Assembly (NCBI GenBank): GCA_964427405.1
Contig: CAYRUB010000007.1
Span: forward strand, 25,364 to 89,363
Direction: 5' to 3'
Length of the DNA: 64,000 nucleotides
From: an uncultured Planctomycetales bacterium
Lineage (GTDB): Bacteria > Omnitrophota > Gorgyraeia > Gygaellales > Profunditerraquicolaceae
Numbering within the stretch: the stretch's first letter is position 1; every line of letters begins with the position of its first letter. Below are positions 5,691 through 35,337 of this stretch, piece after piece. Made by a program: the position numbers and the translations under genes. The notes beneath the pieces are model-generated. The model was not told the origin of the DNA. It saw nothing but the letters and a program-made list of their open reading frames with translations, and did no database searches.

Positions 5691-6955
5691 ATTTTATCGG
5701 GATGCGTAATTCTTCCTGTAATCGCCGAGGCTGCGGCTACCGCCGGATTAGAAAGATAAACAAATGATTTCGGGCTGCCCATTCTTCCCAGAAAATTCCT
5801 GTTAGTCGTAGCGATAGCGACCTCGCCATCAGCTAAAATTCCCATATGCCCGCCTAAGCACGGCCCGCAGGTCGGGGTTGAGAATACGCCGCCGGCTCTA
5901 ACAAAAATTTCAGCCAAGCCTTCTTCAACCGCCTGTAAATAAATCTTTTGTGTTGCCGGAAAAACAATTAATTTTACCCCCTTGGCCACCTTCCTACCCT
6001 TAAGTAAAGAAGCAGCAATACGTAAATCTGAAATCCGGCCATTAGTACATGAGCCGATAACTGACTGATCGATCTTTATGTTTTTCAGGCTATTAACCGG
6101 CTTGGTATTACTTGGCAGATGCGGACAGGCCACTTGCGGCTCAAGTTTCGTAACACCCCATTCATATATTTTCTCATAATGGGCATCCTTGTCAGAATAA
6201 TAAAATTTAGGTTTACGCTTAAAGCCCGCGACATATTTTTTAGTTTTTTCATCAGGTTCAATTAAACCTGCCCTTGCTCCGGCTTCAATAGCCATGTTAC
6301 ACATAGAAAATCTATCATCCATACCTAATCTTTGAATTACCGGGCCGCAAAACTCCATTACCTTATATAGGGCCCCATCCACGCCAATCTGGCCAATGGT
6401 ATAAAGAATAAGGTCTTTGCCTCCTACCCATTTGTTTAGCTTACCTTTATATATAAACTTTATAGATGCCGGAACCCTTAACCAGCACTTGCCGTCAATA
6501 TAAGCGCGGGCTAAATCAGTTGAGCCCATACCAGTGGCATAAGCACCTAAGGCCCCATAAGTACAAGTATGGGAATCCGCTCCGATAATCAGGTCTCCGG
6601 GCAGGACAATTCCTTTTTCAGGAAGCAGCGCGTGCTCAATACCCATGCATCCGATTTCAAAATAGTTCTTTATCCCCTGCTCTTTGGCGAAATCAGCCAA
6701 AACCTTGCATTGATTGGCGCTTTTTAAATCTTTAGCCGGGGCGAAATGATCCGGGACTAAAACAATTTTATTTTTGTTAAAAACTTTTTTAAAACCTGAT
6801 TTTTTAAACTCTGAAATAGCTAAAGGCGCGGTGATATCGTTAGCCAAGGCAACATCAACTTTAGCCTGGGTAAACTCGCCGGGCTTAATTGACTTTTGGC
6901 CAGAATGCTTTAATAAGATTTTTTCCGCGATAGTGTAGGGCATTTTTAAAATCAA
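5687..6955 (-). CDS. leuC: 3-isopropylmalate dehydratase large subunit
   Basis: 422 aa aconitase-family catalytic domain with an Fe-S ligand region (CGPC), lying 5' of leuD. Confidence 0.88.
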   Translation of the reverse strand: MILKMPYTIAEKILLKHSGQKSIKPGEFTQAKVDVALANDITAPLAISEFKKSGFKKVFNKNKIVLVPDHFAPAKDLKSANQCKVLADFAKEQGIKNYFEIGCMGIEHALLPEKGIVLPGDLIIGADSHTCTYGALGAYATGMGSTDLARAYIDGKCWLRVPASIKFIYKGKLNKWVGGKDLILYTIGQIGVDGALYKVMEFCGPVIQRLGMDDRFSMCNMAIEAGARAGLIEPDEKTKKYVAGFKRKPKFYYSDKDAHYEKIYEWGVTKLEPQVACPHLPSNTKPVNSLKNIKIDQSVIGSCTNGRISDLRIAASLLKGRKVAKGVKLIVFPATQKIYLQAVEEGLAEIFVRAGGVFSTPTCGPCLGGHMGILADGEVAIATTNRNFLGRMGSPKSFVYLSNPAVAAASAITGRITHPDKI

Positions 6956-6971
6956 GAGGACGTTTCTATTT

Positions 6972-8216
6972 TTATCCTTTGAACTTCTTTACTATAAGAG
7001 AGGCGTTGTGCCCACCGAATCCTAAAGAATTAGACATGCAGGCTGTTAGGTTCGCTTTGCGCGCTATATTAGGCACGTAATCCAGGTCGCACTCCGGATC
7101 AGGATGTTCGTAGTTGATAGTAGGAGGAACAACTCCGTCTCTAATCGCTAAACAACAGGCCACAAACTCCACTCCGCCTGCCGCTCCCAAAAGATGCCCG
7201 GTTACAGACTTCGTGGAAGAAACCATTACCTTCTTGCTATAATCGCCAAATGACTTCTTTATAGACAAGGTCTCGATTTTATCATTTAATTTAGTTGAAG
7301 TTCCATGCGCGTTTATATAAGAAATATCGGAAGGATTCATCCGGCCGTCTTTTAACGCCATAGTTATTGCCTGAGCAGCCCCCGCTCCATCAGGATCAGG
7401 CGCGGTTATATGGTAAGCATCACAACTCATACCGTATCCAACAATTTCAGCGATAATATTGGCATTTCTTTTTTGAGCATGTTCTAAGGTCTCCAAGACA
7501 ACCAAACCGCTCCCCTCAGCCATTACAAAACCATCACGGTCGCGGTCAAACGGACGGCTGGCCTTCTGAGGATCATCATTCCTGGTAGAAAGCGCCCTTA
7601 ACGCGCAAAAACCACCCACCGCGGTAGGCACAATACAACTTTCCGTACCTCCGGTAAGCATTACATCCGCGTCTCCATAAAGGATCGTCCTATACGCCTC
7701 GCCTATGGCATGCGAACCCGAAGCGCAGGCAGTAACTACGCAAGAATTCGGGCCTTTTAACCCATGAATAATCGCGACCAGGCCGCTTGCCTCATTAACA
7801 ATAAGCATAGGAATAAGAAACGGTGATAACCTGGAAGGCCCTTTGCTAAGCAAAACTTTATGTTCTTCTTCAACAGTATGCAAACTTCCGATACCTGAAC
7901 CAATGATCGTACCAAGGCGGGTTCTATCCTCTTTATCTAAATCTAAACCGGAAGATTCCATTGCCTGTTTAGCGGCAGCTACAGCAAACTGTACAAACCT
8001 TGCCGTTCTTTTAATATCTTTAAGGGAAATCCCATAATGAGTAGGGTCAAAATTCTTTACTTCCGCCGAAATACGGGAATCAAAAGCTGACGCATCAAAA
8101 CTGGTAGTCGGCCCGACCCCGCTTTTGCCATCCTTTAAAGATTGCCAAAAGCTAGGGACATCATTACCTACCGGTGTGATTACGCCTAAACCTGTAATTA
8201 CTACTCTTTTTTTCAT
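6972..8216 (-). CDS. fabF: 3-oxoacyl-ACP synthase II
   Basis: 414 aa. VVITGLGVITPVGN N-terminus, the active-site Cys region (ACASGSHAIG) and the His-His motifs of KAS II. Confidence 0.93.
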   Translation of the reverse strand: MKKRVVITGLGVITPVGNDVPSFWQSLKDGKSGVGPTTSFDASAFDSRISAEVKNFDPTHYGISLKDIKRTARFVQFAVAAAKQAMESSGLDLDKEDRTRLGTIIGSGIGSLHTVEEEHKVLLSKGPSRLSPFLIPMLIVNEASGLVAIIHGLKGPNSCVVTACASGSHAIGEAYRTILYGDADVMLTGGTESCIVPTAVGGFCALRALSTRNDDPQKASRPFDRDRDGFVMAEGSGLVVLETLEHAQKRNANIIAEIVGYGMSCDAYHITAPDPDGAGAAQAITMALKDGRMNPSDISYINAHGTSTKLNDKIETLSIKKSFGDYSKKVMVSSTKSVTGHLLGAAGGVEFVACCLAIRDGVVPPTINYEHPDPECDLDYVPNIARKANLTACMSNSLGFGGHNASLIVKKFKG

Positions 8217-23939: not shown

Positions 23940-26693
23940 TTAAAACTTCATACGGTAGTAAGCGCGGATAATGTGCTGGGTATCGAGTGTAGTAAGACTG
24001 CCCCCGAAGGGATCCTGGGTATAATCAATACTACTGCTGTTAATATACCCCTCTCCGTATTCCAGGACCAGCTGGGCATCCTTGGAAAAAGAATAATAAA
24101 ACGACGAGAAGAAATTGTGGTGTCCGATCATCTTGTCTTTCCCTGCCTTAAGATTATCGACGTCTTTGAGCATGGAATAAACATATTTCAGGACTATGCC
24201 GATTCTTTCCGTAGGGGTGATCACGAATTCACAGCCGCCGTGGTTCATGTTTTCCGAGTTCTGCCCGGCGAGTTGAAATTCATTGTTGGTATAATCGAAA
24301 TAAATCTGGAACTTATCGGGTATAGGGGTTAATCTTAAGCCAGTCTTATAGATATTATAATAAGGATACGGCGCTTGAGGGAAATATCCCTGGTCGTAGA
24401 GATAGGCGACCTTCTCGCGGTAAAGCTTGCCGTTCTGGGAATACGTCGTCCAGCTGCTGGAATTATATATACCGTTGGGATAACTGCCGTAGGTCAGGTA
24501 ATAATCGTTGGTGATCTCGTATACTCCGTTCAAAGACATCCAATTGAAAAAGGCATATTCCAAGCCCAGTGAACCCGTGACCAGAGAGGGGTCTTCTCCG
24601 TCGGGAACGGCACTATTAAGAAAATATTCACCCGTATCGGAATCATAAAGAAAAGGGTCCACCCCGCCCTTGGTTAGCGGCAGGCAATGGTATATACCCA
24701 GCCCCTTAACGGTCAGCTTGTCGCCTACCTTCAGGGTTATCTCATCCCGCGCGACATTCTCGATGAACTTGCCGTTAACATTATGCACGTTGCGCATGTC
24801 AAAAAGGTTGGTCAGGCTATCCTGATACTGGAACTCTGTGCGAAAACCGACAGTATTCCTGCCGACATCTATGCCGTCTCCAATGCGAGTAGCCCACAAC
24901 TCGTCAAAATTCACCCCCGAACCTGTGCCCCCGCCAAAACGCCCATACGGCTTGCGGAAAGTAAGATAACGGGACCAAAACATATCGTCGCGGGTATTAG
25001 CGAAAGAGGAAAGCTCGGAATTGAAATTCTGGTCCATGTGCGCGCCGTAAAATTTGGTCTTTACCAGGAAATCCTCCTCCTTGTTCTTCCTGATGCCGTC
25101 ATAACCATACTCCACGTCTTTAAGGCTTTCCAGCGGATAACGGTTGACCAGGTTAAAATAATAAGCGTTTCCCCGGGCATCGCTTTTATATTCCGCGTTG
25201 GTCAGGTCGTATCTGGAAAACGAGGTGAGCACCTCACCCTGCAGTTTCAGGCCATCGAATATTTCGTATCCTAAATCCAGGCCGCCGACATAGTTTTCAC
25301 TGTCCAAATCCATACTGCTATCGGTAGTGAAACCGTGACGGGATGTAAAGGTCGCGCCAGCTACCGCCCTTTCACCGAGAGCCTGCTTGAGACGGACGGC
25401 GGCGATAATGTTATCCACCTCGCCGTAATCCTGCCAGAGATGTTTCGGAGTGGCCACAGTCGCGCTGAGAGAAGTAGTCTCCGTAGGCTGGCTGGAAAAA
25501 GAAACCCCGCGCAAGGCAGTCAGATAAGTCCCGCTGCCGTCCTTAGACAAGAAGGCCAGAGAATTGTCATAATAACCCTTGGTGAAATCAACAGGGGTGG
25601 TTCTGGTATTCACGTTGCCTGTCTGATAACGGCGAAGCCAAAGACTGTTCTCCCACCACTTATGGTGATTGGTAATATTCAAAGGGTCATCCGAAGTCAA
25701 GGCCTGATCCTGGTAAGCTATCGGAAACACCCTTACCTTGGTGCTGCCGTTGACATAATCAACCCAAAGTTCCCTGATCGGCTGAAACCCGGTGCTTATC
25801 TTTGTCTCCGGAACAGTTAAAGTATCCGGATAAGGATAAAAATTCCCGGAAACGTCAAAAGAAACGACTTTACCATTAACTATTTTCGCCTCCGGCAAAG
25901 CGAAACTATTGCCGAAAATCCTGGAATAAGCGATCTGGTTGACGGTATACTGGGTGCTCCCGCTGTATAAAAGCTGGAGATCAACTTTATCGTCGTAAGC
26001 AGTGGTAAGAGACATCGTATCGCTTTTCCCCGCGAAACTCCAGGGATCGACAACCAAGTTGGCGTGCACATTGAAACCGTCATCTTTATTGGTAGTATCC
26101 AGATTCAAGTTAAGGCTTTGATAGACATTCTTATTGTAAGTATTAAAACCGTTGTTCAACGCGTCGTAAGACTGCATCCTCCAGTTGCGCTCGTTCAAAT
26201 CGTAGTTGGAACTATTCCAGATGAAGTCGCCGTTGGAACTAACCCCGAAACTCAACTGGGCCTCTCCGCTAATCTTCATCCACTCCGTGGACTGTTTTTT
26301 CTTATCTCCATATCTATCAAGTGGTTTAGTCTCTGTTTTTAAAGGATCCACGGACTGTTCGGTTGCCTGACGGCCGGATTCCTGGCTTTCGAGATCCTTC
26401 AAGACGCTATCAAACGCCTCCTCCCTGGATGCAGCGGAAGGCTTGATTTCCGGATTACCGGAGGAAGCAAAAATCTCATTCACGTATTTCTTGGCGGTTT
26501 GGTTTTCCGGATCGGCAAACAATACTTTTTCAAACTCCGCCAGGGCTTCCTCGTATTTTCCCTGCTTGTAATAATTTATCCCTGATTCACAAAGGTATTC
26601 AACCGCCTGGCCAGAGGCTAAGGCTTGTTCAGTGGAAACGAGCAACAATAACGAACCCACAATGAAAAACACAATCAAAAACTTTCTCAACAT
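23940..26693 (-). CDS. Large secreted outer-membrane-type protein: N-terminal TPR motif plus a ~800-aa predicted beta-barrel domain
   Basis: 917 aa. Signal peptide, a TPR-like YYKQGKYEEALAEFEKVL, a Y/N/G/T-rich region of alternating hydrophobicity, and a C-terminal ...YYRMKF aromatic end. Confidence 0.6.
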   Translation of the reverse strand: MLRKFLIVFFIVGSLLLLVSTEQALASGQAVEYLCESGINYYKQGKYEEALAEFEKVLFADPENQTAKKYVNEIFASSGNPEIKPSAASREEAFDSVLKDLESQESGRQATEQSVDPLKTETKPLDRYGDKKKQSTEWMKISGEAQLSFGVSSNGDFIWNSSNYDLNERNWRMQSYDALNNGFNTYNKNVYQSLNLNLDTTNKDDGFNVHANLVVDPWSFAGKSDTMSLTTAYDDKVDLQLLYSGSTQYTVNQIAYSRIFGNSFALPEAKIVNGKVVSFDVSGNFYPYPDTLTVPETKISTGFQPIRELWVDYVNGSTKVRVFPIAYQDQALTSDDPLNITNHHKWWENSLWLRRYQTGNVNTRTTPVDFTKGYYDNSLAFLSKDGSGTYLTALRGVSFSSQPTETTSLSATVATPKHLWQDYGEVDNIIAAVRLKQALGERAVAGATFTSRHGFTTDSSMDLDSENYVGGLDLGYEIFDGLKLQGEVLTSFSRYDLTNAEYKSDARGNAYYFNLVNRYPLESLKDVEYGYDGIRKNKEEDFLVKTKFYGAHMDQNFNSELSSFANTRDDMFWSRYLTFRKPYGRFGGGTGSGVNFDELWATRIGDGIDVGRNTVGFRTEFQYQDSLTNLFDMRNVHNVNGKFIENVARDEITLKVGDKLTVKGLGIYHCLPLTKGGVDPFLYDSDTGEYFLNSAVPDGEDPSLVTGSLGLEYAFFNWMSLNGVYEITNDYYLTYGSYPNGIYNSSSWTTYSQNGKLYREKVAYLYDQGYFPQAPYPYYNIYKTGLRLTPIPDKFQIYFDYTNNEFQLAGQNSENMNHGGCEFVITPTERIGIVLKYVYSMLKDVDNLKAGKDKMIGHHNFFSSFYYSFSKDAQLVLEYGEGYINSSSIDYTQDPFGGSLTTLDTQHIIRAYYRMKF

Positions 26694-26805
26694 AATGTTA
26701 TGCGTAGACCCCCCGCGCGTAAATATGTGAATATTAAAGGTGAACGATTATTAATAAGTATTATAGTAAATTTACCGACGTTAACAAGAAAAAACTTTTG
26801 CCCCT

Positions 26806-26831
26806 AAAATAAAGGGGACGGTTCTATTTTT
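26806..26831. repeat. REP element, inverted orientation (aataaaggggacggttctatttt)
   Basis: Reverse complement of the 24-bp REP consensus aaaatagaaccgtcccctttatt. It forms an inverted pair with 26869-26893. Confidence 0.8.
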
Positions 26832-27582
26832 CTTGTAATTTTCGCACTCCTCGCGACATTTCATCTTTAAAAATAGAACCGTCCCCTTTATTTAAAATAG
26901 AACCGTCCCCTTTATTTTTTGACGGCCTTCCTCTATTTTCCCTTTTGTTATTTATCTGATAATATTCTTGGAGCTTATTGACAAAGGTTTGGCTACCAAT
27001 ATATAATTTATTCTCAAGTAGTTCTGAATTTATTATACTGCTGTCAACCACAAAATCAGCATATTGCCGCTGCCGGGATCTATCAGAATCGGATAAACCA
27101 CAGTAAGCCGGACTTTGAGTAAGAAGACTGTCTGGTATGCCTTTCGCGTAAAGGTTATAACTGGAAAAACGATATTCTGAAGGATGCGTCACTATGCCCG
27201 CCCGGACAGAATTAAGCTCGATGTATTTGCCGCATTGTAATAAATAAGAATCTGCCTCAATGATATTACTTTTAAATCTATCCTGCCATAAATGCCCGCA
27301 ATAACTATAGATCTTTCTATAATAGTAAAAATAGCTTAAATTAACCTGCTTCATAAATCTGGATAACATACTTAGCGAATTAATGAGCAGAACTAAATGA
27401 ACGTGATTATCCATAAGGCAATAGTGTAAGATATTTACCGCATTATAATCTTTCCATTGCCTTAATAAAGTGTAATATTTTAGTTTATCGTTATCACTAT
27501 GAAAAACGTTCTGGCGGTTATTGCCCCTGCAGATAATATGTAGAGCCGCATTAAGTGGAATAACCCTCTTTGTTCTTGGCAT
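26824..27582 (-). CDS. IS200/IS605-like Y1 (HuH) transposase; REP-associated tyrosine transposase (RAYT)-type
   Basis: HVHLVL (HuH) and a downstream catalytic-Tyr region (YRKIYSYCGHLWQDRF). The 3' end reads through the REP copies (translated KGDGSILNKGDGSIF), so the functional protein is probably shorter. Confidence 0.75.
   Translation of the reverse strand: MPRTKRVIPLNAALHIICRGNNRQNVFHSDNDKLKYYTLLRQWKDYNAVNILHYCLMDNHVHLVLLINSLSMLSRFMKQVNLSYFYYYRKIYSYCGHLWQDRFKSNIIEADSYLLQCGKYIELNSVRAGIVTHPSEYRFSSYNLYAKGIPDSLLTQSPAYCGLSDSDRSRQRQYADFVVDSSIINSELLENKLYIGSQTFVNKLQEYYQINNKRENRGRPSKNKGDGSILNKGDGSIFKDEMSRGVRKLQEK
26869..26916. repeat. Tandem pair of REP elements in direct orientation
   Basis: Two head-to-tail copies of aaaatagaaccgtcccctttatt. 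They lie inside the 3' end of the RAYT reading frame as called. Confidence 0.8.
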
Positions 27583-27634
27583 AAAACCCTCCTTCTACTG
27601 CTAATAGACGTAAAAGGAGGATAAATCTAACTAG

Positions 27635-27658
27635 AAAAATAGAACCGTCCCCTTTATT
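27635..27658. repeat. REP element, direct orientation
   Basis: aaaaatagaaccgtcccctttatt, 53 bp upstream of the RAYT start. Confidence 0.8.
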
Positions 27659-28040
27659 CCCCTATTTTCTTTTTCTCGTAATGCGCCTGCGCCTTGATTA
27701 CCTTACGATCAGGGCTAAAATAAAAAACCTCAACGGCAATCAAGCTGCCAACACCCCGATACTGGATTGTAATACTGTTTACTCCAGCGCAAACCGTCAT
27801 TAACTCAAAATGTAGATCAGGAGCCATTTCTAATGCCTTAGCCCAATAATCACCCACCGCGTCTTTTCCTTTTAACAGACCAGAAGAGTTGCCGGTAACC
27901 TTAGCGATCATCGGAGAAATCATCTCGAAATCATCACTATAATGAGAAAGAACCTTCGCCAGGTCATGGCTATTCCAGGCGTTAATCCAATCATGGGCAA
28001 AATCCATTGCGAATTTTTCTTCAATCATTATTTTTTGCAC
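27654..28040 (-). CDS. SnoaL/NTF2-like (DUF4440, ketosteroid-isomerase-like) small protein
   Basis: 128 aa. DFAHDWINAWNSHD and YSDDFEM are typical of NTF2-like folds. The gene is bracketed by REP copies. Confidence 0.6.
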   Translation of the reverse strand: MQKIMIEEKFAMDFAHDWINAWNSHDLAKVLSHYSDDFEMISPMIAKVTGNSSGLLKGKDAVGDYWAKALEMAPDLHFELMTVCAGVNSITIQYRGVGSLIAVEVFYFSPDRKVIKAQAHYEKKKIGE

Positions 28041-28071
28041 CTTCCGTAGAACCTAAAAACACTTCTATATA

Positions 28072-28098
28072 AAAAAATAGAACCGTCCCCTTTATTTT
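28072..28098. repeat. REP element, direct orientation
   Basis: aaaaaaatagaaccgtcccctttatttt, between the NTF2-like gene and the helicase gene. Confidence 0.8.
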
Positions 28099-29437
28099 AA
28101 ACTAGACTGGCGAAGCGGTCGTTAAATTCATAGATGCGTTCGTCAAATATGACATCACTATGAACCACTGGACGTTTAAGTTTGATACCATTCAGGCAAG
28201 TGCATCGGCTAAGCGCCACATATAACTGGCCATGGGTAAATGCGCCATGCCCAAGGTCAATGATCACTTTATCAAAAGTCTGGCCCTGGCTCTTGTGAAT
28301 GGTTATCGCCCAGGCCAGCTTTAGGGGGTATTGCGCAAATTCCCCCACCACCTCATCTTCTATCTTATCCTCCTCCTCATTGTAGCTATATTCGATCTTC
28401 TCCCACTTCGTAATCGGGACATCATACTCAAAACCATTAATATCCACAACAATGGAATCTTGTGATAAAGCCGCCACCTTGGCCAGCGTGCCATTCACCC
28501 AGCGCTTATCCGGATCATTTTTTATCAAGATTACCTGCGCGCCCTTTTTAAGCTTTAATGATGCTTCGGTAGGATATGCCGGCTCTTCGAATTTACCGGT
28601 AGCATAAGCTTTATATGCAATCTCTTTACCGGGAAGTTTGGATAAACGCTCCTGGTTTATCGCGTTGGCCAGGCTATTGGTCGTAGTCAGGATCACGGTT
28701 GAGTCTTTCCGGGAGGCCGTCACATCTTTTTGCACCTTCTTGTTTAATATCTTAAGGTCCTCATCGGTATGCTCTTTATTCCTTACCCGGTTTAAAAGCT
28801 CCATAAACGAGCTATCTTTCTGCCGATAGATAGTCGACAACTCAATTGTCCTAAGATGGCAATCGTCAAATACTTTAGCGCTGAAGAAATACGGGCTTAA
28901 ATAACGCTCTCCCAAAAGCTGCCTGGCTTCATTTTCCACCACCGGAGACAGCTGAAAAAGATCACCGAAAAATACCATTTGGACTCCGCCAAACGGCGAC
29001 TTCATCCTGCCACGATTAAGACGTAACGCGTAATCAATACCATCCATAAGGTCTGAGCGAACCATAGAGACCTCATCGATAATTATCATATCGAGATTCT
29101 CAAATATACTTCTATCCCTGAGGTGCTTTATCGTATCCTTTTGGATGATCTTGGGAGGAAACCTGAAAAAAGAATGAACAGTCTGGCCGCCGACATTAAC
29201 CGCGGCAACACCTGTCGGAGCTAAAACGATTATATTCTTGCCGGTATTGGCCTTAAAATATTTTAAAAGAGTGGATTTGCCGGTGCCTGCCTTGCCGGTG
29301 ATAAAAAGGCACTCCTTGGTGCGCTCCATAAGATCAAACGCCGACTTGAATTCATCATTTATATCAAGGTTCCCCGGAAGTTGATCTTCGACTATTGTTT
29401 GGTTAGTGAAAAATTTCATATTTTCTTTCTTGATCAC
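28097..29437 (-). CDS. Pif1/RecD-like SF1 DNA helicase
   Basis: 446 aa. Walker A (TGKAGTGKST), DEVSMV, GDLFQLSPV, and a C-terminal TIHKSQGQTFD...ALSR. Confidence 0.8.
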   Translation of the reverse strand: MIKKENMKFFTNQTIVEDQLPGNLDINDEFKSAFDLMERTKECLFITGKAGTGKSTLLKYFKANTGKNIIVLAPTGVAAVNVGGQTVHSFFRFPPKIIQKDTIKHLRDRSIFENLDMIIIDEVSMVRSDLMDGIDYALRLNRGRMKSPFGGVQMVFFGDLFQLSPVVENEARQLLGERYLSPYFFSAKVFDDCHLRTIELSTIYRQKDSSFMELLNRVRNKEHTDEDLKILNKKVQKDVTASRKDSTVILTTTNSLANAINQERLSKLPGKEIAYKAYATGKFEEPAYPTEASLKLKKGAQVILIKNDPDKRWVNGTLAKVAALSQDSIVVDINGFEYDVPITKWEKIEYSYNEEEDKIEDEVVGEFAQYPLKLAWAITIHKSQGQTFDKVIIDLGHGAFTHGQLYVALSRCTCLNGIKLKRPVVHSDVIFDERIYEFNDRFASLV

Positions 29438-30274: not shown

Positions 30275-31255
30275 CTACGCCTTAACTATCACTCCAAATA
30301 AAGTATAAATTTTACACCTTAATTCGTCATCACATGCATTGTACTCATCTATCAACTTAATAATCCTATCAACTTGAACTTTCGATTGTTTTGGCAATAA
30401 AGAAATCTCAACCAATTCATTTTTATTAAGATACTGATGCAGATACTTATAAGGGTCTATTTTTTGAGGAATTGCTTGAGAAAGAATAAGATTCCAGCAA
30501 CATTGAGCATCAATACCATTTAAAAACCGTTCAAACTCTCTGTATTCCTTAAGAGAAACTTCACCTACTAGTTCAATTTTCTGCTGAAACCACTTTTGAA
30601 AGCGCGCCACCTGTTCCCTATAAGACGTAAAGACTTTCTCAATATCAATAGATCCAGAATCGGAGATGAACTTTCTGCTGAGAGCGTTCCAGTTTTTCCA
30701 AGCCAGCAAGTCTCTGGAATATACGATGAAGTGAATAGTCTTCCCACCTCCCGATGGATATGAAACCTGCCAATTGGCTCTTACCATTTCATTATGACAA
30801 ATATAATTCCTCAATTCTTGAACGAAATGATGCTCTGGATTATCAAGAAACACTTCCTTGATTTTTTCTTGGTAGCCATCTATTGGGATTTTCTTAATAG
30901 CATTTCTCGACATATCTACTAACGCCATTGCACTAGTGGTGGCTGAAAACATACCTCTCCTAATCGCTAATTCAAGTTGAGCAATCCGTATACGATTAAC
31001 AGGAAACCAAAACTCTTCAGTATTTTCTTCAGACTTAAAGGTATCAATTGAATCAAATAGATTTACTACAGCATCAGAAAATATATCGAAAGAAAGACTT
31101 AAATTTGCCAATTCTGCGTGGTACATATACCCGGGATGTTCTTTTATTGCCTCTCTAGTCAGAATAAAATCTTGGAAGTAAGCTTTCTCCAAAGATTCCC
31201 TTGTCCAAGGAAGCTGACCCAATGTAACTGCAGAAATTCTATTTGAATTATCCAT
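30275..31255 (-). CDS. Hypothetical protein with a candidate HEPN-type Rx4H motif (ELRNYICHNE)
   Basis: 326 aa with no family match recognised by eye. RNYICH fits the RNxxxH HEPN signature. Last gene of the repeat-punctuated array. Confidence 0.4.
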   Translation of the reverse strand: MDNSNRISAVTLGQLPWTRESLEKAYFQDFILTREAIKEHPGYMYHAELANLSLSFDIFSDAVVNLFDSIDTFKSEENTEEFWFPVNRIRIAQLELAIRRGMFSATTSAMALVDMSRNAIKKIPIDGYQEKIKEVFLDNPEHHFVQELRNYICHNEMVRANWQVSYPSGGGKTIHFIVYSRDLLAWKNWNALSRKFISDSGSIDIEKVFTSYREQVARFQKWFQQKIELVGEVSLKEYREFERFLNGIDAQCCWNLILSQAIPQKIDPYKYLHQYLNKNELVEISLLPKQSKVQVDRIIKLIDEYNACDDELRCKIYTLFGVIVKA

Positions 31256-31343
31256 ACTTCTTAAACAATCTTTTGTATGCCGCCGCTTAAACCTGTTTCA
31301 TTTTTTCTCATCACAAATGACATTCCGATAAAACTTAGGGAAG

Positions 31344-31401
31344 CTTCTATAGTTTTTGCTTCCTCGGCCGTACCCACTTTGACCCCGGAAACGACACTTA
31401 G
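31344..31401. repeat. Cassette-associated ~58-bp conserved intergenic element, copy 1
   Basis: cttctatagtttttgcttcctcggccgtacccactttgaccccggaaacgacacttag. Over 80% identical to copies at 32239-32296 and 33045-33102. Confidence 0.8.
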
Positions 31402-31403
31402 TT

Positions 31404-32180
31404 TTATTTATTAACTTTAAAATCTCTAAATCTGCTATTTTCCTCATAAAAACGCAGATTTTGAATATCTTCATTAACAACAGCTAATATCTTTGTTTTT
31501 GTTTCACTGTTAAATTCATCAAAATTATTAACCAGATTTATAAATTCATCTGCGTTATTAGTTAATTTTCTATTCTGCAACCACCCCTCAAACTTATTTT
31601 TCTGACTATAGTAATTTCTATGTCTTTTGATATAAAGATCATATGCTTCTCGATTTTTATCATTTACAACTTTAAAATTGTTATTTTCTAAGTTTAGGTC
31701 TTTCTCGATAGGATCAAAAAACTGCGCCATACTCCCATACAACTTGTTTTTTAAATCAAAAATATTATAGAAATGATAATCTCGAGATATTGACGTAATC
31801 TCAGCATTACTAAAATTTAACCTCTTGGAAATTGTTATGATTTTTTCATAATAACGTGCGGCTTCTTCTTTAGGCATGCTCGAATCCCATCTTCCCATAC
31901 GCATCATAGTAGAAATATTCATTTCGGTAACTGGAACAGCCAAATCGTGTAAATATTTTAGGAGCTCATCTGCTCTGTGAATCTTTTCTTGAAGCTCAAC
32001 TTCGAGCCCAAGCCCCTTAAAAGATTTAACTGTGTCGGGACAAAGAAAAATTAAGCATAGAAAAGCAGCACAGAATGGCGTCAAAGAAGCACTAGCTTTA
32101 TTTTCGTATGACAACCAACCTCCTAAAACAATAAGCAGAATAAAAAAAGCTAAAAGTATTAAATTTATTATATTACTCAT
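31404..32180 (-). CDS. Hypothetical membrane protein (two N-terminal TM helices plus a soluble domain)
   Basis: 258 aa. TM1 IINLILLAFFILLIVLGGWL and TM2 FCAAFLCLIFLCP. No recognisable domain. Confidence 0.5.
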   Translation of the reverse strand: MSNIINLILLAFFILLIVLGGWLSYENKASASLTPFCAAFLCLIFLCPDTVKSFKGLGLEVELQEKIHRADELLKYLHDLAVPVTEMNISTMMRMGRWDSSMPKEEAARYYEKIITISKRLNFSNAEITSISRDYHFYNIFDLKNKLYGSMAQFFDPIEKDLNLENNNFKVVNDKNREAYDLYIKRHRNYYSQKNKFEGWLQNRKLTNNADEFINLVNNFDEFNSETKTKILAVVNEDIQNLRFYEENSRFRDFKVNK

Positions 32181-32238
32181 ACCCTACCTCCATTTTCTCT
32201 AATAAATAGAGCCTAATTCAATACAATATTTATGGCTA

Positions 32239-32296
32239 ATAATCATTCGCTTCTATAGTTTTTACTTCCTCGGCCGCACCCACTTTAACCCCGGAA
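32239..32296. repeat. Cassette-associated conserved intergenic element, copy 2
   Basis: cttctatagtttttacttcctcggccgcacccactttaaccccggaaacatcccctaa. Confidence 0.8.
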
Positions 32297-32346
32297 ACAT
32301 CCCCTAATTTATTCTCCTTGAAATTCCGCTATCAAATCTTCCCATT

Positions 32347-32919
32347 TTAATGCCCACTTTTACAAAACTGTGTGTTAATCAAAGTTTTCAACTCATGAAA
32401 ATCTTTTTCTAAATTTGGTAATTTCGCTATTAATTCAGGTAATTTTTTAAAAAAAGACCCAGGGTTGTCAACTATTACCAGATTCCCCTCGTTTAGTAAC
32501 ATAATATATGTAAAAAGATGTAACCTTTCCCTGATAGTTACTTGATCCCTATCCATAGAAGCAAGCAGCATACAACCATTTCTCCTTGCTTCAAATATAA
32601 TCGGCTCTTGTTTTGCAAAATTATGGCCTTCACTTAAAATTAAAGTATTTCTTCCCAATTCTTTATTCTTTAATTCGTTTACATCATTTATTCGTAATTT
32701 AACAATCCCTTTAGCGAATTTAACATCTTCTCCTTTTTTATCAATAGAATCTATCACGGCGCCTTTACCTGCGCCTCTTGCCCCTATCAGCAAAATCATA
32801 TCGCCATAGTTTAAATTAAAAGTGACATTAAACAAACCATACTCTCTATTAATACCGGATTTTTCTCTCCTATTACTTCTAGTCAAATCTTTAACTTGTA
32901 ACGGAATAATGTTACTCAT
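32347..32919 (-). CDS. Miniature ABC/SMC-like P-loop ATPase with degenerate motifs
   Basis: 190 aa. A beta-hairpin plus Walker A (FNVTFNLNYGDMILLIGARGAGKGAVIDSI) of the ABC/RecF/SMC type. LSEGH in place of the LSGGQ signature. LVIVDNPG in place of the DEP Walker B. A C-terminal SGH. Confidence 0.45.
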   Translation of the reverse strand: MSNIIPLQVKDLTRSNRREKSGINREYGLFNVTFNLNYGDMILLIGARGAGKGAVIDSIDKKGEDVKFAKGIVKLRINDVNELKNKELGRNTLILSEGHNFAKQEPIIFEARRNGCMLLASMDRDQVTIRERLHLFTYIMLLNEGNLVIVDNPGSFFKKLPELIAKLPNLEKDFHELKTLINTQFCKSGH

Positions 32920-33044
32920 ATTTTTTATTCTCCTTAAGAATTACTCTCGATTATTTTGAAATCCAGAAACACACTGTTTATTTACCCCCAGCCTTCACCC
33001 CAAAGTAATAAAGGAGACATCTCTATTTTTCTTATTTTGGCTAC

Positions 33045-33102
33045 CTTCTATAAATTTTACTTCCTCGGCCGCGCCCACTTAAACTCCGAAAGCGACGCTT
33101 AG
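33045..33102. repeat. Cassette-associated conserved intergenic element, copy 3
   Basis: cttctataaattttacttcctcggccgcgcccacttaaactccgaaagcgacgcttag. Confidence 0.8.
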
Positions 33103-33117
33103 TTTAAAGAAACTTCC

Positions 33118-33702
33118 CTATTGCTTTATATCTTTTTCTATGTTGTATGTCTCAAAAAATACTTTTATAAAGAACAGTTCCAACAAATGCCTAAAAGCAA
33201 TATTTACTTGCACCATCGCAAAAGTAAAAAAATATGAAGAAAACATAGTAATGAAAATTTTGATAATTATTTTAAACCATGTTGCCATTTTGGATATAAA
33301 TTGAGGATGATAGAAATATGTATCCCTAATGATTGTTTTGGCTGCATATAATATTGCAAAAGAAATGATAATAAATACCGCAGAGAGGAACAGCTTTTCT
33401 CCAACAAAACAGTAAATCCTGCTCCTACTTGCATCTTTAGTAGCCCTAGATGCGCTAAATGACAGTGCCCCCAAAGCAATAATAGAACCAATAACTGTAA
33501 TAATAATCTTAAGGTCTTCTACACTTTGTTCTGTGCGTAGATTCATGACCTTACTAAAATAAAATTGCCCCAACCATAGAACAAAATAAATCGGGATTAA
33601 TAGTACCACTTCTTTTCCGATCCATTTTATTTTAGTTATAGCGGATTGCCTTAATAAAGTTTTCATATCAAATGCTCGTATTTTTTTGTCGATATATTCC
33701 AA
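33118..33702 (-). CDS. Hypothetical polytopic membrane protein (~4 TM helices)
   Basis: 194 aa with four hydrophobic segments. No recognisable domain. Confidence 0.5.
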   Translation of the reverse strand: MEYIDKKIRAFDMKTLLRQSAITKIKWIGKEVVLLIPIYFVLWLGQFYFSKVMNLRTEQSVEDLKIIITVIGSIIALGALSFSASRATKDASRSRIYCFVGEKLFLSAVFIIISFAILYAAKTIIRDTYFYHPQFISKMATWFKIIIKIFITMFSSYFFTFAMVQVNIAFRHLLELFFIKVFFETYNIEKDIKQ

Positions 33703-33736
33703 AATACTGAACTATACAAAAATTAACCCAACCAAC

Positions 33737-33777
33737 AAAAAAAAGACAACCCCCTATTTTAGAGGATTGCCTTATAG
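33737..33777. repeat. Copy 2 of the A-run/palindrome element
   Basis: aaaaaaaagacaaccccctattttagaggattgccttatag. Matches 19401-19442. Confidence 0.6.
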
Positions 33778-33827
33778 TCGTTTATTCTTGAACCCCATAA
33801 AGGGCTCCTTGTGTAGTTTATACTATT

Positions 33828-34442
33828 TTAGATTCCTAATATCTTTTTGATAAATACCGGCCGCGCATAAAACGCACGAGTCTTTGAACCATGCCCTGAC
33901 CCTTTTGTGCGTGCCTGTATCCACTTGCCATCTTTACCGGTCAAACTCCCAAACCCTTGAGTAATAAGCTTATTGCGAATGAAATCATAATCAGCTTTAA
34001 CTTCTAGGATAAGTTCATCTGTTTTGGCAAAATCCAGGCTCGTAACTTCCAATAATTCGGCTTTTTCCGCATTCTTTCCATACCACATTACAGCGCAGAA
34101 AATAATTGCTTTGAGTTTCGACCAACAATGACTCTCAAAGAATGAGTTCGCCTTTAGTTCTTCGGGATTAATCATGGTGATAGCCATCGTCTCTTTAGGC
34201 ACAAGCTTATCTTTTACATAATGAAAGCTGACGGATTTTAATTCATAAGTAAGGCCATTAGGAGCTTTAGAAACATTTGTTTCCAATCCAGCCAAGCGCT
34301 CTAAAATTAGGCCTTTCCAACCCTTGTTTTGTCTCCCGGTTTCAAAGGTAGTAACGCCATATTTTAAAGCTAACTTTCTTAAATCTTGCCCGATATACTT
34401 TTTTAAATTACTTATTGCTGTTGCGCGTGTGATAATCTTCAT
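33828..34442 (-). CDS. MutH/Sau3AI-family type II restriction endonuclease
   Basis: 204 aa. NKGWKGLILERLAGLETNVSKAPNGLTYELKSVS aligns with E. coli MutH [36 protein letters not shown]. Confidence 0.6.
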   Translation of the reverse strand: MKIITRATAISNLKKYIGQDLRKLALKYGVTTFETGRQNKGWKGLILERLAGLETNVSKAPNGLTYELKSVSFHYVKDKLVPKETMAITMINPEELKANSFFESHCWSKLKAIIFCAVMWYGKNAEKAELLEVTSLDFAKTDELILEVKADYDFIRNKLITQGFGSLTGKDGKWIQARTKGSGHGSKTRAFYARPVFIKKILGI

Positions 34443-34458
34443 AGTATTGAGCAGGTTT

Positions 34459-35337
34459 TCATGTTTTCCCTAAATCATTAAGCCTCTTTATAGAAGTTTT
34501 CAGGTATGATTGTTCTAACTCTATCCCTATAAACTGTCTCTTTCCTCCTACTGCCGCGACGCCGGTAGTAGAGCTACCCGTAAAGGGATCCAATACTATA
34601 TCTCCCGGCTTTGTGGAGGCTAATACAATCCTATTTAACAATTCCAGGGGTTTTTGAGTTGGGTGTTTACCATATATTTTCTCTGCCGAGCCCGGGGCCT
34701 TAATAGACCAAAGACTTAGCATTTGCTTATCGTTATTCATTTTCTTCATCAAGGGATAATTAAAAAAATGCTTACTGTCTTTACTCTTAGCTGCCCAAAG
34801 AATAGTTTCTGTGGAATGAGTAAAATACCTACAGCTTAAATTCGGCGGAGGATTTACTTTAAACCAAGCAATATCATTTAATATCTTGTAGCCCAATCCT
34901 TGCATAGCTGAGCCAACTGTATAAATTATATGTGATGTTCCAGAAACCCAAATTGTGCCATTAGGGGTTAAAACCCTCTGACATTCTCTAAGCCATCTTT
35001 GAGTAAAGATAAAATCCTCTTCAATACCTTTTGAAACATCCCATTTACCTTTATTTACAGAGACTTTCTTTCCAGCATGACAAGTAAACCCACCGTTTGA
35101 CAAAAAATATGGTGGGTCAGCAAAAATCATATCTACTGAGTTTTCAGGTAGCTTAGAAAGAATATCGAAACAATCGTTATTAAAAAGAACAACACTGTGT
35201 TTCTTATCCACAAAATATGGCTTTTCGGGAATATCTTTAATCAAATTAAAGATATCTTTCTTATTAATTGATTTTTCTATAGTTGTGGTAGGCATAACTA
35301 TCGCAGGCAGATTAATAATGTTTTCATTTTGTTCCAT
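34459..35337 (-). CDS. DNA amino-methyltransferase (N6-adenine or N4-cytosine; DPPY then FxGxG order)
   Basis: 292 aa. FADPPYF (motif IV) precedes VLDPFTGSSTTGVAA (motif I). Confidence 0.8.
   Translation of the reverse strand: MEQNENIINLPAIVMPTTTIEKSINKKDIFNLIKDIPEKPYFVDKKHSVVLFNNDCFDILSKLPENSVDMIFADPPYFLSNGGFTCHAGKKVSVNKGKWDVSKGIEEDFIFTQRWLRECQRVLTPNGTIWVSGTSHIIYTVGSAMQGLGYKILNDIAWFKVNPPPNLSCRYFTHSTETILWAAKSKDSKHFFNYPLMKKMNNDKQMLSLWSIKAPGSAEKIYGKHPTQKPLELLNRIVLASTKPGDIVLDPFTGSSTTGVAAVGGKRQFIGIELEQSYLKTSIKRLNDLGKT

Follow-up and report, generated by a model that had tools for sequence, protein, structure and literature searches.

A short dispersed repeat and a gene of a Y1 HUH nuclease lie together in a stretch of 64,000 nucleotides (nt) from an uncultured bacterium of the phylum Omnitrophota (GenBank assembly GCA_964427405.1, contig CAYRUB010000007.1), which is called the window below. 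The gene (26824..27582, minus strand) encodes a TIRYT, or RAYT-like, nuclease of 252 amino acids (aa); its homologs have about 225 aa. The repeat, the 23-mer AAAATAGAACCGTCCCCTTTATT, occurs exactly at 26870-26892, 26894-26916, 27636-27658 and 28074-28096 on the plus strand and, inverted, at 26808-26830. No match appeared in 100 dinucleotide-preserving shuffles of the window, giving a chance expectation of 0 against the five copies observed at 26808-28096. A sequence-only reading of this DNA had described five copies, one of them inverted, and the exact 23-mer was found at all five sites, though the positions given there deviated by 1-2 nt because of flanking A residues. The search of the 64 kb revealed, besides these, one degenerate solitary copy with three mismatches, AATCAAGAGGACGTTTCTATTTT, at 6950-6972 (minus in the orientation of the 23-mer, plus in the feature table), and nothing further. 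A contig of 5 kb identical to the window is present in the Logan run SRR13007709.

Two of the copies bracket the nuclease gene. The upstream terminal repeat (27636..27658, minus strand) reads AATAAAGGGGACGGTTCTATTTT on the sense strand of the gene and ends 54 nt before its ATG, the core starting 70 nt ahead of this codon; the TAA stop of the neighbouring SnoaL-like gene (27654-27656) is located within its AATAAA part. The downstream terminal repeat (26808..26830, plus strand) is inverted with respect to the upstream one, reads AAAATAGAACCGTCCCCTTTATT on the sense strand and contains the TAG stop of the nuclease gene (26824-26826). The upstream repeat has an equal position and orientation in homologous loci, and the overlap of stop codon and repeat is likewise found there. 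Both genes upstream of the nuclease gene have extra copies at their stop codons, the outermost single copy (28074..28096, minus strand in the feature table) directly following the stop of a Pif1-like helicase gene. The downstream terminal repeat and the nearer of two copies inserted in the gene form an inverted, REPIN-like dimer (26808..26892, no strand assigned) with 25-bp arms and a 35-nt loop, for which DNA folding gave -31.5 kcal/mol and a z-score of -9.4.

As was found by the Pfam search, the 252-aa protein matches Y1_Tnp with an E-value of 2e-15. The HVHLVL motif and the catalytic tyrosine pointed out by the sequence-only reading are present as DNHVHLV at residues 58-64 and the invariant Tyr120, and the full set of motifs comprises D58-N-H-V-H62 (with the HUH motif at H60-V-H62), W99-Q100, Y120-I-E-L-N-S125 and F139-S-S-Y142. 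The protein scored 55.3 bits with the NCBIfam model NF047646 (REP_Tyr_transpos; cutoff 80) and 21 bits with NF033573 (transpos_IS200; cutoff 55). Both scores are below threshold, but the former exceeds the latter, so the protein seems closer to RAYT, as had been suggested. A profile of homologs compared with solved structures in the PDB had a sole match, Escherichia coli TnpA-REP (4er8). The AlphaFold model, with a predicted local distance difference test (pLDDT) score of 80.6, likewise placed 4er8_A at the top of a fold search, with a template modelling score of 0.70 on the target, followed by the TnpA proteins of IS608 and ISDra2. The search for homologs found 1275 proteins, and most of the best 120 listed are 223-225 aa long and end in ...RGRPxKxxx. 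In an alignment of 108 sequences, G218 never varies, and both R219 and P220 are at least 90% conserved, together making up a C-terminal RGRP motif. This motif is reminiscent of an AT-hook and may make contact with the A/T-rich flanks of the repeat.

The shared Y1_Tnp domain and the structural ranking of IS608 and ISDra2 TnpA in second place and below raise the question of a canonical IS200/IS605 element. This reading is hardly credible, being refuted by the IS200 model score, the Y---N(P/S) motif, the family length of 225 aa, the inverted-repeat ends and the absence of tnpB. The sequence-only reading had named a TnpB partner and grouping with IS200 as signs of an ordinary insertion sequence (IS). 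In the open reading frames (ORFs) between 20.8 and 36.5 kb, i.e., about 6-9 kb on either side, no OrfB/TnpB or other IS gene was found, and the IS200 score of 21 bits lies well under its cutoff of 55.

Across 309 copies, the conserved unit of the repeat is (A)AATAAA-GGGGACGGTTCT-ATTTTT(Y), about 25 nt in length, and its 12-nt core is 97-100% invariant across phyla. The sequence-only reading had expected an imperfect hairpin with a 5' tetranucleotide. This was not borne out: a single unit (25-30 nt) has a folding energy of 0 to -0.3 kcal/mol, 136-200 of 200 shuffles fold too, a GT[AG]G foot (GTAG or GTGG) was sought in the unit and is not present, and folding is confined to inverted pairs. With no GTAG foot and no folding of the single unit, the repeat does not qualify as a classic repetitive extragenic palindromic (REP) sequence; a classic REP hairpin was accordingly rejected for the subfamily of the window. 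In two loci of more distant clades with 248-257-aa proteins (L146, positions 182-211 and about 1000-1030; L174, positions 239-268), each flanking repeat forms a small hairpin of -5 to -7.6 kcal/mol as DNA, the lower stem of which is a 6-bp GC-containing helix (ACACAA/TTGTGT, AGACGA/TCGTCT) around GGGGACGGTTCT; the subfamily of the window retains only an A/T remnant of such a stem. The arms of dimers show compensatory changes in their inner A/T part, and the outer part is frequently unpaired. An Rfam scan of 26000-29000 in evalue mode yielded sub-threshold matches only (e.g., Plastid-psbJ-5, 36.6 against 53.1 bits), which merely reflect a long hairpin.

The association of gene and repeat was found to recur. 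A homolog of the nuclease gene is present in 8 of 120 loci selected by the repeat, among the matches listed. Among loci chosen by the protein alone, a subset carries the same core as the window: in the GGGGAC form ahead of the gene, at 36-188 nt from the ATG, and in inverted form on the stop or shortly behind it. This bracketing geometry is seen in at least 15 related loci (L121, L203, L205, L207, L209, L041, L035, L072, L124, L146 and others). Of the 78 loci with full-length homologs, 60 have the gene between inverted repeats 11 nt or more in length, nearly all of these repeats beginning with GGGGWC or GGGAC; the chance of an exact bracketing 12-mer, calculated for a search of 300 nt upstream and 370 nt downstream, is about 0.007 per locus. 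Across the 78 loci, the type of repeat (GGGGACGGTTCT, GGGGTCAGGYCTT, GGGGACAGATTT, GGGGACACCATAC or GGGACAGTCACCC) tracks the protein tree, and enzymes with a mutual identity of only 27-43% are bracketed by the GGGGACGGTTCT core.

The repeat is also dispersed far from the gene. A scan with its 21-mer, comprising one genome per species, found it in at least 120 stretches of at least eight phyla, mainly Omnitrophota; the counts of dimers, pairs and solitary units refer to the matches listed, among which the genome of the window does not figure. Other hosts are Nitrospirota/Nitrospinota, Smithella/Syntrophaceae and other Deltaproteobacteria, Planctomycetes, Aminicenantes, Elusimicrobia and Desantisbacteria, and several metagenome-assembled genomes (MAGs) of Omnitrophota contain at least 18-45 units each in the sampled loci only. 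Close pairs of repeats are inverted in 100 of 115 cases; the GGGGAC-arm comes first, then the loop and then the GTCCCC-arm, and the spacer most often measures 18-21 nt. Dimers are extragenic in 94 of 95 cases, compared with 76% of the loci being covered by ORFs of at least 120 aa. The sequence-only reading had placed the gene between copies of the repeat, one of them inverted, and this stands, the bracketing being seen in the window and the dispersal of the repeat in other genomes. No target-site duplications were found at 82 dimers, the lengths of direct repeats in the flanks being equal to those of a re-paired control. This is as expected for Y1 enzymes, and a DDE-type IS or miniature inverted-repeat transposable element (MITE) was therefore rejected. 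Solitary units in the loci L001-L120 are situated mostly 2-10 nt from the stop of the upstream gene and have GGGGAC on the sense strand in 27 cases versus 9; that gene frequently ends with the TAA within their AATAAA, as the SnoaL-like gene of the window does.

Such a distribution might be thought to reflect selection by the host. The repeats would then be bidirectional terminators or mRNA-stabilising hairpins incapable of movement, and the nuclease gene would be a decaying relic. The dimers are indeed GC-cored stems with A and T runs, located in gaps between co-directional or convergent genes in 48 of the 52 classified cases; single copies sit at stop codons, often providing the TAA; and the window protein carries a P125S substitution and a 27-aa insertion. 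However, terminators need no fixed sequence, whereas the 12-nt core is nearly invariant across phyla and co-varies with the clade of the enzyme, single units do not fold, and the gene is intact: every catalytic residue is present, and the length is conserved among 1275 homologs. A role as terminator or structural element alone is insufficient because a fixed sequence tracks the enzyme clade, and this explanation is considered unlikely.

It is rather likely that the locus is a TIRtron, a RAYT-like Y1 HUH gene (TnpA-Y1 subclass 2.1, TIRYT) bracketed by inverted cognate repeats. By analogy with E. coli TnpA-REP and its REP sequences and with IS608 TnpA, the enzyme would act on single-stranded DNA, where it would recognise the conserved core with its GGGGAC and then nick and rejoin the DNA by means of Tyr120 and the HUH metal site. 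Repeat units would be copied or moved without target-site duplication, with local rearrangements at repeat boundaries, while the gene itself would be a resident, mostly single-locus gene and not a multicopy IS. The dimers may also serve as hairpins or terminators between genes.

The inverted ends permit another explanation, in which the repeat, the gene and the inverted repeat (about 850 bp) constitute an autonomous IS moving as one piece, with the short dimers as its MITE-like derivatives. Terminal inverted repeats (TIRs) together with short dimers having the same ends resemble an IS/MITE pair, homologs of 67-72% identity occur in unrelated gene neighbourhoods, homologs are found on 16 plasmid records, and RAYT Group 1 shows some IS-like traits (PMC5581495). 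The GC content of the gene (0.36) is also under that of its immediate neighbours (0.42-0.50), but GC composition was dropped as a sign of foreign origin, the region being too heterogeneous. On the other hand, the dimers lack target-site duplications, a single copy of the gene is present in the 64 kb, published figures put the copy number at about 1.9 per genome, with copies of low mutual identity (PMC6006769), and those Y1 enzymes whose mechanism is known work with hairpins instead of TIRs. In addition, the closest homologous locus, L121, retains the same upstream nitroreductase gene, which suggests inheritance in place with local rearrangement, not reinsertion. It seems improbable that the unit is such an IS, and the TIRtron reading is preferred. 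A phage or plasmid vehicle was rejected as well, with one weak phage match and 16 plasmid records found, all below 40% identity. Three separate matches to the protein, at 36% identity, are present on a 24-kb plasmid of Pseudomonas aeruginosa (H1, NZ_CP116719.1), an unusually high density for this protein family.

The unusual length of the window protein is connected with the repeat. It had been proposed that the tandem pair of repeats is translated as the C-terminus, and the tail does read ...RGRPSKNKGDGSILNKGDGSIFKDEMSRGVRKLQEK. It had also been supposed that the 252-aa product is a read-through artefact of a shorter enzyme. The enzyme does normally have fewer residues (about 225 aa), but no stop was missed; the cause is an 81-nt in-frame insertion at the 3' end of the gene (26836..26916, minus strand), which encodes NKGDGSILNKGDGSIFKDEMSRGVRKL and consists of the tandem repeats 26894-26916 and 26870-26892 plus 34 nt at 26836-26869. 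It lies between TCAAAA and CAAGA, three codons ahead of where the ancestral stop stands, and leaves the original QEK-stop in place. The 88%-identical protein P0001 is encoded in locus L121 without the insertion, TCAAAA being followed directly by CAAGAAAAATAG. The L121 gene ends ...CCG TCA AAA CAA GAA AAA TAG AACCGTCCCC, so that its stop codon is inside the terminal repeat. As judged by this alignment, the length of 252 aa is a real in-frame insertion and not a missed stop codon.

The 34-nt loop segment TAAAGATGAAATGTCGCGAGGAGTGCGAAAATTA (26836..26869, minus strand) is a piece of a small Cys-rich ORF, from its 5' end. The blastn comparison of window positions 26893-26832 with L121 positions 2597-2655 gave 92% identity over 62 nt, and the matching segment of L121 is located 1.8 kb downstream of the transposase gene, where a copy of the repeat is followed by the small Cys-rich ORF. 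This match to another repeat site of L121 indicates that the insertion carried flanking DNA from that site; a copy of the donating region was looked for in the window and not found. The Cys-rich ORF is complete in L121 (2622-2780) and encodes 51 aa, MKCRECENYKPIDSRKGACFGAVIKGDRDPKDSEKCQGRFFKPPKTNKKEL; its first 34 nt are the loop of the window dimer, and it has a faint Pfam similarity (E-value 0.045) to the N-terminus of the 4-hydroxyphenylacetate decarboxylase gamma subunit.

Tails encoded by the repeat were also observed in other homologs (RTVPF, IEPSP, GDGSHF). A set of shorter homologs, 185-207 aa in length and about 68-70% identical, ends right after DFVV(D/E) (P0113, P0117, P0118, P0101, P0087, P0094, P0114, P0115), and the first four of them have repeat-encoded terminal peptides such as NKGDGSLE and KRGDGSVENRTVP. 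These endings suggest that a repeat or dimer entered the gene and took away some 40 terminal residues. In L203 (5670-5700) and L207 (5671-5720), a partial terminal repeat is present at the stop of the homolog, broken off after AGAACCGTC or AAAATAGAACCGT, with a full copy or dimer further downstream. Partial copies tend to break within GTCCCC, though the cases are few and AT-rich seeds give chance matches; as a weak lead, these breakpoints may point to the site of cleavage or joining.

The comparison with L121, the closest homolog (88% aa and 92% nt identity), also touches the gene order. L121 has the order nitroreductase, repeat, gene. In the window, the end of the nitroreductase gene (90% identity to L121 over 52 nt) is followed by the Pif1-like helicase gene, a repeat, the SnoaL-like gene, a repeat and the nuclease gene. 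Relative to L121, the window thus gains a 1.8-kb block (Pif1-like, repeat, SnoaL-like, repeat) precisely where the upstream repeat begins on its 5' side, and downstream the two loci are similar as far as the outer border of the terminal repeat. The breakpoints between window and L121 therefore coincide with repeat edges at three places. It may be conjectured that repeat boundaries are sites of whole-gene capture and shuffling, the TIRYT enzyme and its repeat forming a Y1-based, cassette-like system that does more than spread repeats. This idea is prompted by the block inserted relative to L121, the 34-nt foreign flank that was copied in and the end of synteny at the repeat edge, and by the identity of the 12-nt core over at least eight phyla and enzymes of 27-43% identity; it is nevertheless very doubtful.

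Several points weigh against the TIRtron reading. To our knowledge, no member of the TIRYT group or subclass 2.1 has been studied biochemically, and their cleavage and mobility are inferred by analogy. All exact copies in the window are inside 1.3 kb, and the other 62 kb contain the degenerate copy only. The window protein has Ser in place of Pro125 of the Y---NP motif, this Pro being at least 90% conserved in 108 homologs, and the added residues 226-252 have a pLDDT under 50 and are predicted to be disordered; with this substitution and a disordered 27-aa insertion, the window copy of the enzyme may be impaired. A C-terminal helix-turn-helix (HTH) domain had no Pfam match in the whole protein or in residues 157-225 at E-values up to 10, the latter region being modelled as three short helices with a pLDDT of 55-73. 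HTH-like domains (Bac_DnaA_C, HTH_23, HTH_28) are frequent in subclass 2.1 and heterogeneous in 2.1.2 (PMC6006769). According to Quentin et al. 2018, no REP-like sequences are present beside subclass 2.1 genes (PMC6006769). The GGGGWSAS motif is common to "some TIRs" (PMC3733652), and the window core GGGGACGG fits it at 7 of 8 positions, with G for A at position 7; it is fully fitted in the sister clades (GGGGACAG, GGGGTCAG, GGGGACAC). Finally, the link between breakpoints and repeat edges rests on a single comparison, that with L121.

The neighbours of the nuclease gene are SnoaL-like, Pif1-like, nitroreductase and TPR genes. The combination of a HUH nuclease with a Pif1 helicase is that of Helitrons, and the Pif1-like SF1B helicase (28097-29437, minus strand, 446 aa) is encoded two genes upstream of the nuclease. 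No homologs of the Pif1, SnoaL, nitroreductase or TPR genes were found in the other roughly 200 loci. A Helitron-like partnership was rejected in the absence of Pif1 beside other family members, and the adjacency in the window is probably a coincidence. Upstream of the nitroreductase gene, the region 30275-35337 has a GC content of 0.30-0.38 and contains three ORFs without Pfam matches and a short ABC-ATPase-like ORF. There a MutH-like endonuclease gene (33828-34442) adjoins a gene of an N6/N4 DNA methylase (34459-35337), and the two are, by their predicted products, probably a restriction-modification pair. The repeat-gene unit is thus located at the border of a variable region.

The significance of the locus lies mostly in the relation of gene and repeat, as PMC3733652 and PMC6006769 disagree on whether subclass 2.1 genes have cognate repeats. 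The window locus and its relatives appear to support a cognate relationship because the bracketing is constant, the repeat type tracks the clade, the REPIN-like dimers are dispersed and extragenic, and the core is conserved far above the enzyme. GGGGACGGTTCT in A/T-rich flanks would offer a defined substrate for the first in vitro test of a TIRYT enzyme. The repeat also explains oddities of annotation in Omnitrophota MAGs, namely the tails KGDGSIF, RTVPF and IEPSP on "transposase" calls. Modestly new are the identity of the repeat across phyla, the in-frame insertion of repeats in a subclass 2.1 gene and the breakpoints at repeat edges.

Compared with known systems, the locus shares with IS200/IS605 elements (IS608, ISDra2) the fold of the HUH/Tyr catalytic core and presumably the single-strand DNA chemistry. 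It differs in the lack of tnpB, in Y---N(P/S) instead of Y---Q, in the family length of 225 aa instead of about 150 aa, in ends that are inverted repeats and not distinct left and right subterminal hairpins, and in the low copy number of the gene. The likeness to REPtrons and REPIN-RAYT systems (E. coli TnpA-REP with REP and BIME sequences; REPINs of Pseudomonas fluorescens SBW25) is greater. In both cases, a domesticated-type Y1 gene is accompanied by inverted extragenic repeats that elsewhere are mainly hairpin-forming inverted doublets, target duplications are lacking, repeat and enzyme co-vary, and 4er8 is the best structure. However, the window repeat has no GT[AG]G foot, a single unit of it makes no stable palindrome, the protein belongs to another subclass and is under the NCBIfam RAYT cutoff (55 versus 80 bits), and the repeat is conserved across phyla rather than lineage-specific. 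Of the REPtron label given by the sequence-only reading, the bracketing inverted repeats and the inverted doublets elsewhere remain, whereas the foot and hairpin do not, and the precise category is TIRtron/TIRYT, a sister of the REPtron (PMC3733652, PMC6006769).

Quentin et al. 2018 (PMC6006769) equate subclass 2.1 with RAYT Group 1 of Bertels (PMC5581495) and with TIRYT (PMC3733652). Among the RAYT groups, it is reported to be the largest. The window locus departs from the TIRtron/TIRYT descriptions in its host phylum, Omnitrophota being absent from the sampling of PMC3733652, PMC6006769 and PMC5581495, in a tail that ends in RGRP with no HTH-type domain detected, in an identical 21-mer common to at least eight phyla, and in the in-frame repeat units of the gene, insertion of units in the own gene having been described as unique to subclass 2.4 (PMC6006769). 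The key motifs of subclass 2.1 are NHVH, W[EQ], YIELNP and SS in the proximal tail (PMC6006769, Table 1), and the window protein, of a family with about 225-240 aa, has NHVH, WQ, YIELN(S; P in homologs) and SS. TIRtrons as described by Di Nocera et al. 2013 have TIRs at similar distances, a 3' overlap and copies in dimers or clusters (PMC3733652). Similarly, the gene here stands between long inverted repeats whose distance from it varies rather little, and the one on the 3' side runs into the end of the gene. The repeat begins with GGGGWS and elsewhere is found singly, in dimers and in clusters, and the taxonomic spread is wide and patchy. The locus is thus a clean Omnitrophota example of the known, little-studied TIRtron/subclass 2.1 kind and not a new kind of system.

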